Program-made: the position numbers and the translations under genes
Notes under the pieces: model-generated
What the model saw: the letters and a program-made list of their open reading frames with translations, nothing else
Databases searched by the model: none
What the model was told of the DNA's origin: nothing
Shown here: one piece after another, positions 8,115-32,978 of the stretch
Numbering within the stretch: position 1 is the stretch's first letter
Layout of the letters: each line of letters starts with the position of its first letter
Virus record (IMG/VR): IMGVR_UViG_3300027833_000011
Length of the DNA: 64,000 bases
DNA from: a virus
Taxonomy: Duplodnaviria; Caudoviricetes
Strand: one strand, 5' to 3'

Positions 8115-8531
8115 TGGTGGAGGTGCCGGGTTTCGAACCCGGGTCTTGTTCAGTCCACCTATAAAGGACTACACGTTTAGAACAGTATTTTCTAATACTT
8201 CGAAATTTGTTGGTTATTATTCATCATTGCAACCAACACCCAATGAACGATTCAATTTTGGGTTTAATCGTACTCTACCACACTGCGGACTTCTGTTGCT
8301 AGGTTATGTGTCCTGACCGACCCCATGTAACCGACTCTTAGAGTGGGTTACTGTTAACACGTAGTCTAACTATGCGTTAACGATAGCTTCGTCAGCTACT
8401 AAGCCGAACATTGCCATCTCGTTGTAAACGTTGCCGTCTAAAAAAATTGTCACCGTAGATTAAAGTGATAGGAAACATCTCACTACGTGCCCCGTATAAC
8501 TGACCCTGCCAATCAATTCCAAGTCACCCCC
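8115..8531 (-). ncRNA. ssrA: tmRNA (417 nt); tag ORF 8435-8370 = (A)GNVYNEMAMFGLVADEAIVNA*
   Basis: 5' GGGGGTG pairs with 3' CACCTCC including G3-U70; 5' GGAATTGA loop; T-arm CCGGG-TTCGAAA-CCCGG; encoded ACCA end; TAGAC-GGC resume context. Confidence 0.92.
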
Positions 8532-8536
8532 ATTAA

Positions 8537-8794
8537 TTAAACTATCTCCGGGTCTTTATAATAATCTTCTTTCAACAAAGACCATATATGACCCATAATT
8601 CTTTCTATTGTTTTAATTTTGTCGTGGTCTCCTAAGAAAAGAGCATTTTCACGAGATTCGGCTAAAACAAAGTATTCTTTTTTTAAGGATTCAAAAAACA
8701 TATTTTCCATTATACTAATTCTTCTACTATTCCAATAATTTCTGAAATAACTAACACTATAGTCGCAGAAATTAAATCGAACGGGATTAAACAA
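8537..8794 (-). CDS. hypothetical protein
   Basis: ORF track; true start probably internal (MENMFF). Confidence 0.5.
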   Translation of the reverse strand: MFNPVRFNFCDYSVSYFRNYWNSRRISIMENMFFESLKKEYFVLAESRENALFLGDHDKIKTIERIMGHIWSLLKEDYYKDPEIV

Positions 8795-8895
8795 TAACCA
8801 AATATACGAATTCCTGATTTAATAAACGATATGATTTGATGCCATTTTTGATTTGGCATTTTCTCAATATTCTTCTCTTTAGGTTTTATCAACAT
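8710..8895 (-). CDS. small membrane protein
   Basis: 61-aa ORF with hydrophobic C-terminal half. Confidence 0.6.
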   Translation of the reverse strand: MLIKPKEKNIEKMPNQKWHQIISFIKSGIRIFGYCLIPFDLISATIVLVISEIIGIVEELV

Positions 8896-8896
8896 A

Positions 8897-30835: not shown

Positions 30836-30928
30836 ATATAAAAACTTTTTTTTGTTTTTGACTCTACAAATATACTACATTTTATCTAAAAAACAATAGA
30901 ATTACTATTTGTCAGTATTATTAGACTA

Positions 30929-30949
30929 TAACTGACACTTTGTCAGTTA
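30929..30949. promoter_or_regulatory. operator-like palindrome TAACTGACA-ctt-TGTCAGTTA between clpC and dnaK
   Basis: 9-bp inverted repeat between two leftward TAnnTTTG elements (30867-30874 and 30986-30993). Confidence 0.5.
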
Positions 30950-31118
30950 ATCCCTATTCGGTATTTTTTTTGACCTAAGGAACCACAAAGATATGTATTA
31001 TAGTTTAATCAACCAAAACATAACATATTAAATAAATCTAAACGTTTGTTGAATCTTTTAAAAAAATTATTTATTTTTGGATTGACTACAAACGTCTAAT
31101 ATTAAAAATTAAAAACAC

Positions 31119-32978
31119 ATGGGAAAAGTAATTGGTATTGATTTAGGAACAACAAACTCTTGTATTTCATTTATGGAGGGTGGAGAACCTAAAGTCATTG
31201 TAAATAATGAGGGAGGTAGAACTACCCCTTCAATTGTATCGTTTAAGGATGGCGATATTAAAGTAGGAAACACTGCAAAAAGAGTTTCCGTTACGAATCC
31301 TTTAAATACGATTTATTCGTCTAAAAGATTTATTGGTCAACGATATAGTGAATTAAACGATGACCATAAAAACGTGGCGTATAAGATTAAAAAAGGAAAT
31401 AACGATTCTGTCGTGATAACTGCGAATGGTAGAGATTACGTACCTCAAGAGATATCGGCAATGGTATTACAAAACATTCGTAAGAGTGCCGAATCGTTTT
31501 TAGGTGAGTCTGTTACTGAAGCGGTTATTACGGTACCCGCATATTTTAATGATTCACAACGTCAGGCAACTAAAGAAGCTGGTGAAATCGCAGGGTTAAA
31601 AGTATTACGTATTATTAACGAACCAACGGCAGCGGCATTAGCATATGGATTGGATAAGAAAGATAAAGACATGAAGGTCGTTGTCTTTGATTTAGGTGGT
31701 GGTACATTTGATGTATCTATTTTAGAGTTAGGAGATGGTATCTTTGAAGTACTTTCTACTAACGGTGACACCCAGTTAGGTGGTGATAACTTCGATGAAG
31801 CCATTATTGACCACTTTATGTCCTTAATCGAAATTCAATCAAACGTAGATATCTCTGAAGACCCAATGGCGATTCAAAGAGTTAGAGAGGCGGCTGAGAA
31901 AGCTAAGGTAGAGTTATCAACGGCAAATCAAACCTCTATTAGTTTACCTTATATATCTGCAGGTTCTAGTGGACCAATTCATTTTGAGACTACATTGACA
32001 AGAGCAGACTTTGATAGATTAACATCTAATTTAGTTGACCGTTCAATCAAACCTTGTGAAAAAGCATTGTCAGATGCGAACCTAACAATTGGTGAAATTG
32101 ATGAGGTAATCTTAGTGGGAGGTTCAACTCGTATTCCAGCAGTACAGGATGCGGTTAAGAAGTTATTCGGTAAAGAACCAAATAAAGGTGTAAATCCTGA
32201 TGAGGTTGTTGCGATGGGGGCATCGATTCAGGGTGGTGTATTATCCGGAGACGTTACAGATGTATTATTATTGGATGTCACTCCACTTTCATTAGGTATT
32301 GAAACAATGGGTGGTGTTATGACAAAATTGATTGAATCAAACACAACAATCCCAACAAATAAATCACAGACGTTCTCAACCGCAATCGACAATCAAACAG
32401 TAGTAGAGATACACGTTTTACAAGGTGAAAGACCAATGGCGACTAATAATAGAACATTAGGTAAGTTTAAATTAGAAAGTATTCCAATGGCACCGAGAGG
32501 TATCCCACAGGTAGAAGTTACTTTTGATATTGACGCTAATGGTATTTTAAATGTTTCAGCGAAAGATAAAGGAACGGGTAAAGAACAAAAGATTAAGATT
32601 GAATCCTCAACAGGTTTATCTGACGCAGACATCCAAAAGATGAAAGACGAAGCAGAACAAAATAGAGAAGAGGATAAAAAGAAGGAAGAAAAGATTAAAC
32701 TTATTAATGAAGCCGATTCATATGTGTTTACAACAGAAAAACAAATGACTGAATTAGGTGACAAAATTTCTGAAGAAGAAAAAACAAACTTAGAGAAGTT
32801 AATTGGAGAACTTAACGAGGCTAAGACTTCAGAAAATTTAGAACTTATCACAAGTAAAAAATCTGAACTTGAGGGAGTGTGGAATCAAATAACTACGAGA
32901 CTCTATCAAACAGGAGAATCGGGTGATAGTGGTGGTCCTGATGAGGGGACACAAGATGTCGATTATGAAGAAGTTTAA
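31119..32978 (+). CDS. dnaK: Hsp70 chaperone DnaK
   Basis: [36 protein letters not shown]; terminator GAAACCCCTC-GAAA-GAGGGGTTT follows. Confidence 0.98.

Follow-up and report, generated by a model that had tools for sequence, protein, structure and literature searches.

Does a large phage that carries its own transfer-messenger RNA (tmRNA, the product of ssrA) and its own ClpC unfoldase use the two together, so that chains tagged on stalled ribosomes are degraded by a phage protease? The question is raised by 64 kb of phage DNA with 32% G+C (IMG/VR record IMGVR_UViG_3300027833_000011; the window below is this whole stretch of 64,000 nucleotides), which holds an ssrA gene, a clpC gene that lacks the usual N-terminal domain, a dnaK gene, a gene for the ribosomal protein bS21 and three genes for small proteins with a common tail. 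An original prediction, made from the letters of the window, had joined all of these into one circuit that rescues ribosomes and redirects host ClpP. Lists of phage tmRNAs go back twenty years, and to our knowledge nobody knows the purpose of their odd tags.

The comparison with related viral contigs suggests an answer with fewer parts. The clade to which the window is assigned appears long to have carried a linked block of N-domain-less (N-less) clpC, an M20/M42-like peptidase gene and ssrA, mostly with a distant clpP, and this block may act as a tagging–degradation route, a reading to which we give a probability of about 0.42. DnaK, bS21 and the three small proteins are separate accessories that lie outside the clpC–ssrA block.

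The tmRNA gene and its tag

The tmRNA gene of the window is 417 nt long (8115..8531, minus strand) and matches the full Rfam model RF00023, model positions 1-374, with 80.1 bits against a gathering cut-off of 47 (E 1.8e-29). The 5′ end GGGGGUG pairs with CACCUCC, which is followed by ACCA, so that the acceptor stem contains the G3:U70 alanine identity pair and the CCA end is encoded. An intrinsic terminator (8083..8108, minus strand) begins 7 nt past the 3′ end of the tmRNA, with a 10-bp stem and a T-run (fold -19 kcal/mol, z = -4.1). The tag reading frame (8370..8435, minus strand) starts at the resume codon GGC and runs for 21 codons to a UAG, giving the predicted peptide GNVYNEMAMFGLVADEAIVNA. 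ARAGORN calls no tmRNA in the window; we nevertheless keep the Rfam call because the relatives and the conserved tag frame back it. An alternative tag frame, ATFTTRWQCSA, was rejected since that peptide occurs only in the window and in G001, a 92-kb IMG/VR contig with 92% DNA identity to window positions 1-59417.

Homologues of this tmRNA score 73-118 bits against RF00023 in the relatives, and a 15-nt probe, the stretch that is invariant in the first five tmRNA copies, finds the family in at least 120 viral (IMG/VR) contigs. In bacteria and archaea (596 Gb of genomes) the same 15-mer has only 77 matches, scattered over unrelated taxa, and we assign the tmRNA to a phage-only family. Because of this scatter the 15-mer was dropped as a clue to the host. 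We also gave up the idea that an encoded CCA is a constant feature of the phage tmRNA genes and absent from those of hosts, since several relatives end in CCACAA or CCACTA.

The tag consensus of the phage family is GNVLNKMETLGLVRESEVTVA. Its length is nearly constant: among 48 unique copies the tag has 21 codons in 42, 22 codons in five and 20 codons in one. The 29 distinct 21-residue tags have G1, G11 and A21 in common without exception, K6, L12, R14, V18 and V20 are nearly invariant, and 28 of the 48 unique tags end in VTVA and eight in VAVA. The entropy at the three codon positions of the frame is 0.94/0.48/1.22, with the lowest variation at position 2 and the highest at position 3, which is the pattern that a translated frame should show. 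Five Bacteroidota from four orders, the phylum of the putative host, have GENNYALAA or GESNYAMAA instead, so that 20-22 phage codons stand against nine and the endings VTVA, VAVA or IVNA against ALAA. The tag was thus rightly called atypical. Descent from a Bacteroidota tmRNA nevertheless fits, because the Gly resume codon is kept and some of the phage tags start with GET.

ARAGORN calls only 11 of 65 family members (83% are missed); six of its 11 calls read the identical full-length tag and four a shorter one in the same frame. Annotations of these phages that are based on ARAGORN will under-count tmRNAs, and its poor detection is probably why the published account of these phages has no tmRNA.

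A ClpC without its N-terminal domain

The clpC gene (28808..30835, minus strand) is predicted from Pfam, motifs, alignment and tree to encode a ClpC-derived double-ring AAA+ unfoldase of 675 aa. Its two AAA+ modules contain PF00004, PF07724, PF17871 (AAA_lid_9) and PF10431 (D2-small), and the M-domain is the short ClpC form, with a UVR match (PF02151) of 23.2 bits against a cut-off of 21.5 at residues 283-313. Both Walker A/B pairs are intact, the pore loops are KYRG and GYVG, the aromatic residue of the M-domain is kept, and the ClpP-docking loop is intact as GLGF at residue 535 (LGF 536-538). What is missing is Clp_N, for which the Pfam scan of the protein gives zero matches (PF02861). Residues 20-663 align with residues 155-797 of Staphylococcus aureus ClpC, and the start of the open reading frame (ORF) corresponds to about ClpC residue 136; because only 283 bp separate the clpC start from the divergent dnaK, there is no space for an overlooked N-domain exon. 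The description of an N-less ClpC with an LGF loop is therefore borne out, and without Clp_N the protein is a ClpC-derived variant and not a standard ClpC.

This variant is widespread in viruses. ClpC homologues with 59-70% identity are found in more than 590 viral contigs, and among the best 80 of these, 77 have 669-702 aa and no N-domain, whereas 79 of the 80 nearest bacterial ClpCs have 125-228 extra N-terminal residues. (The loci of relatives that are counted in this paper are the best 80 from pattern-seeded searches and not a random sample.) The docking loop, (V/I/L/M)GF, is kept in 79 of the 80 viral homologues. In a FastTree tree of the shared core, the 78 N-less ClpCs are monophyletic (support 1.0); sister to them are three viral ClpCs that retain Clp_N (Pfam E 5.7e-15), and the Bacteroidota ClpCs come next. 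This nested order points to a single loss: the phage lineage acquired a Bacteroidota ClpC, lost the N-domain once and has kept the rest intact. A tmRNA search of the three sister contigs, which are only 3-15% complete, was empty (completeness values here and below are CheckV estimates). A full-length ClpC, of 847-898 aa and with 57-61% identity to the phage ClpC, is encoded in each of the 31 Flavobacteriaceae genomes that were sampled, so infected cells would contain both forms.

Linkage of clpC, the peptidase gene and ssrA

The two genes were proposed to co-occur across related phages, and they do. Contigs longer than 100 kb that were selected for ClpC have a tmRNA in nine cases out of ten (eight above the Rfam cut-off and one by nhmmer), and large contigs selected for the tmRNA have an N-less ClpC in five out of five. 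The genes are also close to each other: downstream of clpC, at a distance of 1.1-6.3 kb and without exception in the same orientation, 27 of the 80 loci have the tmRNA. Where the downstream flank is 8 kb or longer, as at 37 loci, 20 have a clpC-linked tmRNA. The block has a third gene. Directly downstream of clpC in the window (27701..28750, minus strand) an M20/M42-like metallopeptidase is predicted (weak matches to PF05343/PF01546; phrog_4191 'peptidase', E 2e-42), and the peptidase gene adjoins clpC in 43 of the 80 relatives. At one locus, L047, clpC, the M20/M42-like peptidase gene and ssrA form a contiguous array with gaps of only ~50 and 23 nt. The window keeps this order and strand, clpC, peptidase, ssrA, but here the peptidase gene is separated from ssrA by ~19 kb of variable DNA.

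ClpP and SmpB

The window itself has neither clpP nor smpB, as had been stated: Pfam scans of the larger ORFs return neither, and tblastn with a phage ClpP and a phage SmpB has no match at E<=10. No clpP was found in G001 (92 kb) either. Larger relatives give a different picture for ClpP. Of 16 large relatives, ten encode a phage ClpP (178-200 bits) at a site distant from clpC, and so do five of the six whose completeness is 73% or more; in G003, a relative of 297 kb, the Ser-His-Asp triad is visibly intact. Because most of these large relatives have their own clpP, redirecting host ClpP, as in the original prediction, would not be needed.

For SmpB the situation is the reverse. PF01668 was not found in any of nine relatives searched, which include G003, G017 and G018 and of which three are ~99-100% complete. 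Without a phage SmpB, rescue needs SmpB, alanyl-tRNA synthetase (AlaRS) and EF-Tu from the host, and the idea of a private channel in the infected cell is not supported.

The phage and its host

The window contains a T4-type set of head genes, namely the large terminase, the gp20 portal, the gp23 major capsid protein and a gp21-type prohead protease. By capsid protein (~43% identity) the closest cultured relatives are Flavobacterium phage immuto, Microcystis phage Mel-JY01 and Rhodothermus phage RM378. Contigs of 270-317 kb, with an estimated completeness of 81-100%, are related to the window more remotely than G001. Megablast of window positions 24859-32978 against GenBank phages gives zero matches. 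From its genes and relatives we assign the window to a clade of ~300-kb T4-like jumbo phages of Bacteroidota. The phage is probably allied to the moraphages, a placement made by comparing gene content, size and host phylum with the published account (PMC12619734).

Three kinds of evidence make it almost certain that the host belongs to Bacteroidota: the DnaK matches (all 80 best bacterial matches to the phage DnaK are from Bacteroidota, with 59-64% identity), the position of ClpC in the tree, and promoter-like sites of the Bacteroidota type. Sites of the form TTG-N18-21-TAnnTTTG lie upstream of clpC, dnaK and the peptidase gene, and a scan of the window for the pattern finds 13 sites where 6.8 are expected. 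Specifically, the site upstream of clpC is TTG-N20-TATATTTG (30867..30896, minus strand), and that upstream of dnaK lies at 31049..31079 on the plus strand.

DnaK, bS21 and the small proteins

The gene for DnaK (Hsp70; 31119..32978, plus strand; PF00012 with 834.6 bits over residues 4-597) is divergent from clpC across 283 bp, as first described. It appears to be of Bacteroidota origin. However, a dnaK between the KTSC-domain gene (see below) and clpC is found in only nine of the 80 relatives, and the nine are scattered in the ClpC tree, where they fall into three or more subclades. DnaK is therefore an accessory of patchy occurrence and cannot be retained as a part of the circuit. This patchiness is consistent with the published view that such genes come from Flavobacteriaceae (PMC12619734).

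The bS21 homologue (43496..43690, minus strand; PF01165, E 3.5e-13, 49.5 bits against 27; phrog_21469) was correctly identified, and it sits in the head-gene module. A syntenic copy with 55% identity is present in G003. We therefore count bS21, a gene class known from phages, as a predicted member of the structural module outside the clpC–ssrA block; it had been included in the circuit.

The three small proteins were supposed to be UVR adaptors of ClpC. They are of 93 aa (9906..10187), 74 aa (17095..17319) and 85 aa (19328..19585), all on the minus strand, and have a common C-terminal (L/Y)E(E/K)YExC tail, which reads ...YEKYEECKK..., ...LEEYEKCKT... and ...LEEYELCSK... respectively. The proteins and their tail are thus real, but they are not UVR by any test. 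A search with Pfam UVR (PF02151) gives nothing at E<=1 for the three proteins, hhalign against the ClpC M-domain aligns nine columns with a probability of 0.8%, and a regular expression for the UVR motif, run on all six frames of the window, matches ClpC itself and nothing else. Pfam and PHROGs searches of the three proteins give nothing useful, with one weak match to DUF7276 (E 8.6e-4). Their distribution is narrow: tblastn and a motif search did not find them in G003, and they are seen only in G001 and in a few orthologues of 82-99% identity. For the third protein such 82-99% orthologues are all that is found among 5.8 billion proteins. All three are best described as lineage-specific orphans.

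Does the phage tag feed the phage protease?

If the block acts as a tagging–degradation route, host RNA polymerase would transcribe clpC, and dnaK where it is present, from Bacteroidota-type promoters, as the motifs suggest. Host AlaRS would charge the phage tmRNA, in which G3:U70 is visible, and host SmpB and EF-Tu would bring it to stalled ribosomes. Translation would then resume at GGC and add Ala and the 21-residue phage-specific tag, in keeping with the conservation of both frame and peptide. The N-less ClpC would be unable to take the N-domain adaptors or the phospho-arginine marks that control cellular ClpC, its (V/L/I)GF loop would dock it on ClpP, that of the phage or, in phages that lack one, that of the host, and ClpC–ClpP would degrade its substrates, tagged chains among them. 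The adjacent peptidase would finally trim the released peptides to amino acids. That the phage tag feeds phage ClpCP in this way is a tentative proposal, to which we would give somewhat less than an even chance.

Several observations weigh against it. The tags of ssrA are mainly read by ClpX and ClpA/SspB, and ClpC is not a canonical reader; because ClpX and ClpA are the established readers, the passage of the tag to phage ClpC is the weakest step of the scheme. The ratio of nonsynonymous to synonymous polymorphism (pN/pS) over the tag is 0.64, so that by this measure purifying selection on the peptide is only modest, and the IVNA end of the window's own tag, shared with G001 only and unique among the 48 unique tags, makes a C-terminal degron of strictly conserved sequence less likely. 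The distance from ssrA to clpC in the window is 20 kb of variable DNA. Two genomes lack one of the parts. G017 (304 kb, estimated 100% complete) has an N-less clpC and a tmRNA 2 kb apart and no clpP, which means that at least one member of the clade must rely on the ClpP of its host or have a ClpC that works with no peptidase, and LR756502 (642 kb) has an N-less ClpC, SmpB and three ClpPs and no tmRNA above the Rfam cut-off; because of these two, no part is strictly tied to another. In addition, the parts are near-universal in one vertically inherited clade, so that co-occurrence and synteny cannot separate coupling from shared ancestry.

The main rival to the tag-to-ClpC reading is that the genes are independent modules, which we regard as possible with the odds against it. 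The tmRNA would then only free ribosomes that stall through host mRNA destruction or defence RNases, its tag being read by host proteases or having a sequence that barely matters, while N-less ClpC, ClpP and the peptidase would degrade host proteins or misfolded phage proteins for take-over, amino acids or virion assembly; their closeness would be inherited synteny. The region from clpC to the structural genes is wholly syntenic with G003, so the neighbourhood weighs little, and a peptidase gene beside clpC in 43 of 80 relatives fits bulk proteolysis. The modest constraint indicated by pN/pS, together with G017 and LR756502, also speaks for separate modules, as do Bxz1-type mycobacteriophages, which carry a tmRNA with no Clp ATPase reported alongside (PMC4131195). 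However, the constant length of the tag (21 codons in 42 of 48), its invariant G1, G11 and A21 across 29 distinct tags and its VxVA end are hard to square with an irrelevant peptide. The phage tag is also unlike the host tag in both length and ending, and at the 27 linked loci the tmRNA gene and clpC always run in the same direction, with one contiguous array. A stronger form of the tagging–degradation reading, which we think unlikely, is an orthogonal degron–protease pair, in which the tag, here of 22 residues, would be read poorly by host ClpXP/SspB and specifically by adaptor-free N-less ClpC with phage ClpP, while the aminopeptidase recycles amino acids. If this were true, translation that stalls in the host would become a source of building blocks for the phage that the host does not control.

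Other explanations concern ClpC itself. The N-less form might act on host ClpC, by forming mixed hexamers or by competing for ClpP, and so uncouple Clp proteolysis from the host's adaptors. There is an analogy in Escherichia coli, where the N-terminally truncated isoform ClpB80 mixes with full-length ClpB, and a partner would be at hand in all 31 Flavobacteriaceae with their full-length ClpCs of 57-61% identity. The retained M-domain aromatic residue and docking loop, and the missing ClpP of G017, are in line with this idea, but ClpP in most of the complete relatives suggests a self-contained protease and a sequence divergence of 40% may block co-assembly, so that we find it improbable. Alternatively, ClpC could be a peptidase-free unfoldase or disaggregase that works with DnaK, in the manner of ClpB, on the folding or assembly of large virion proteins. 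The divergent dnaK beside clpC in the window and in eight other relatives, G017 with no clpP, and the many chaperones noted in moraphages (PMC12619734) would all suit such a role. It is nevertheless quite improbable, given that 71 of 80 relatives have no DnaK, that 79 of 80 keep a ClpP-docking loop, which ClpB does not have, and that the M-domain is of the short ClpC form and not the long DnaK-binding form of ClpB. The circuit as originally drawn, with no phage ClpP, three UVR-tailed adaptors by which ClpC captures host ClpP, and DnaK and bS21 as further parts, is very improbable and largely refuted by the comparative data. It has on its side the window without clpP and the tails of the small proteins, which align over nine residues with the M-domain of ClpC where its UVR core lies; the relatives encode ClpP, the small proteins fail both Pfam UVR and hhalign (probability 0.8%), are missing from G003 and have only near-identical orthologues, and DnaK is patchy.

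Other genes of the window

Divergent from clpC, beyond dnaK, lie the genes for a KTSC-domain protein of 85 aa (33060..33317, plus strand; PF13619, E 8e-19) and for a nucleotidyltransferase-like ORF of 254 aa (33307..34071, plus strand; PF01909, E 3e-4), which are present in 76 and 74 of the 80 relatives respectively. As a guess, the KTSC protein is perhaps the moraphage core gene named 'Lysine-tRNA ligase'. On the other side of the peptidase gene a protein of 935 aa (24859..27666, plus strand) has a C-terminal GH24-type phage lysozyme domain at residues 796-929; the ~790 residues before this domain have no assigned function, and the lysozyme end alone is conserved in relatives.

The variable region between ssrA and clpC contains nine tRNA genes (Glu, Asp, Ser ×2, Tyr, Met, Arg, Leu, Thr; 15204..23785, minus strand; ARAGORN and Rfam), of which the two for tRNA-Ser(UGA) lie at 15821-15906 and 23338-23423, both on the minus strand. 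The part from ssrA to the peptidase gene also holds several peptidases and many orphan ORFs, few of them shared with G003. Positions 8897-24611 are rich in enzymes that are mostly missing from G003 at the equivalent place. The predicted products are a glutathione-peroxidase-like protein (8897-9469), two 2-oxoglutarate (2OG)-Fe(II) oxygenases (12199-12831 and 17387-17950), a carbamoyltransferase-like protein (12828-14516), a matrixin-like M10 protein (21452-22294) and a papain-like C1 protein (23832-24611).

Beside clpP in G003 lies an ORF of 193 aa (L091:2753-3334, minus strand) with a match to Bac_rhodopsin (PF01036, E 3.7e-14). Its last helix contains a D..AK motif, and it is a candidate rhodopsin gene in a Bacteroidota jumbo phage.

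Comparison with known systems

Each of the gene classes discussed here is already known in phages. Mycobacteriophages and phage G have tmRNAs (PMC4131195), jumbo phages have ClpP, ClpA, ClpX and ClpS (PMC7824862), and huge phages carry tmRNA, SmpB and bS21 (Al-Shayeb et al., 2020, PMC7162821). We found no paper on a phage-only tmRNA family with a conserved long tag, on a single-origin N-less ClpC, or on the linkage of the two genes. The family that is now defined is easily sampled and almost invisible to ARAGORN, and the tmRNA linked to a ClpC with one early domain loss offers a concrete pair on which to ask whether a phage has its own degron with its own protease. A natural N-less ClpC would show how substrate choice and resting state depend on the N-domain, and an orthogonal tag–protease pair, if true, would be a useful tool. 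If the link fails, a clean annotation remains, in that clade-wide ssrA, N-less ClpC and ClpP are missing from the published phage description.

Bacterial trans-translation, with tmRNA–SmpB and ClpXP or ClpAP with SspB, shares several features of its RNA with the phage system: G3:U70 in a tRNA-like domain, pseudoknot 1, a UAGAC context ahead of the resume codon, and a short ORF with Ala as its last residue; the Bacteroidota tag shares the Gly resume codon and, with some phage tags, a start in GE(T/N). The phages differ in that they have no SmpB, a longer tag with another ending and a conserved 15-mer that is absent from bacterial tmRNAs, and the candidate reader of the tag is a ClpC derivative and not ClpX. 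ClpC of Bacillus subtilis and S. aureus (PDB 3j3t, 6em8) is controlled by MecA, McsB and phospho-arginine through its N- and M-domains. The phage form has the same D1, D2, UVR M-domain, aromatic M-domain residue and ClpP loop, but is without the whole of Clp_N (~140 residues), including the known adaptor and phospho-arginine sites. The window ClpC also has ~55% identity (tblastn) to records labelled as Staphylococcus phages, which are probably bacterial DNA.

Among phages, Bacillus phage G (499 kb) carries tmRNA, ClpX and ClpP (PMC12484599, PMC4131195). As in the clade studied here, its tmRNA has a non-host-like tag ending in VA (AKLNITNNELQVA) and is accompanied by a Clp ATPase and a ClpP of the phage's own; its ATPase is ClpX and not N-less ClpC, it belongs to another lineage with a Bacillota host, and no conserved linkage of ssrA and ATPase genes is reported for it. 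The huge phage LR756502 has an N-less ClpC of 707 aa with 58.6% identity, but combines it with SmpB and three ClpPs and no Rfam-level tmRNA, whereas the clade studied here has the tmRNA and no SmpB. In LR756502.1 (367597-368013 and elsewhere) the SmpB match has E 7.8e-50, and a weak 84-nt match to the tmRNA model lies 6 kb from smpB.

The moraphages are large aquatic Bacteroidota phages whose genomes reach 307 kb; they have structural genes of the T4-like kind, PhoH, a core ATPase ('ClpA'), a 'putative peptidase' and, in eight of 25 genomes, a DnaK derived from Flavobacteriaceae (Perez-Hernandez et al., 2025, PMC12619734). Size, structural genes, PhoH, ClpA/peptidase and DnaK match the window and its relatives, while the tmRNA, ClpP and the missing N-domain go unmentioned in that account. 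Interference of a phage in ClpC-dependent proteolysis has a further parallel in SPO1 gp53, an adaptor-like protein that redirects host ClpCP (PMC6873191). However, gp53 is a small protein acting on the ClpC of the host, whereas in the phages described here, in which no adaptor is identifiable, it is the phage's own ClpC that has been altered.

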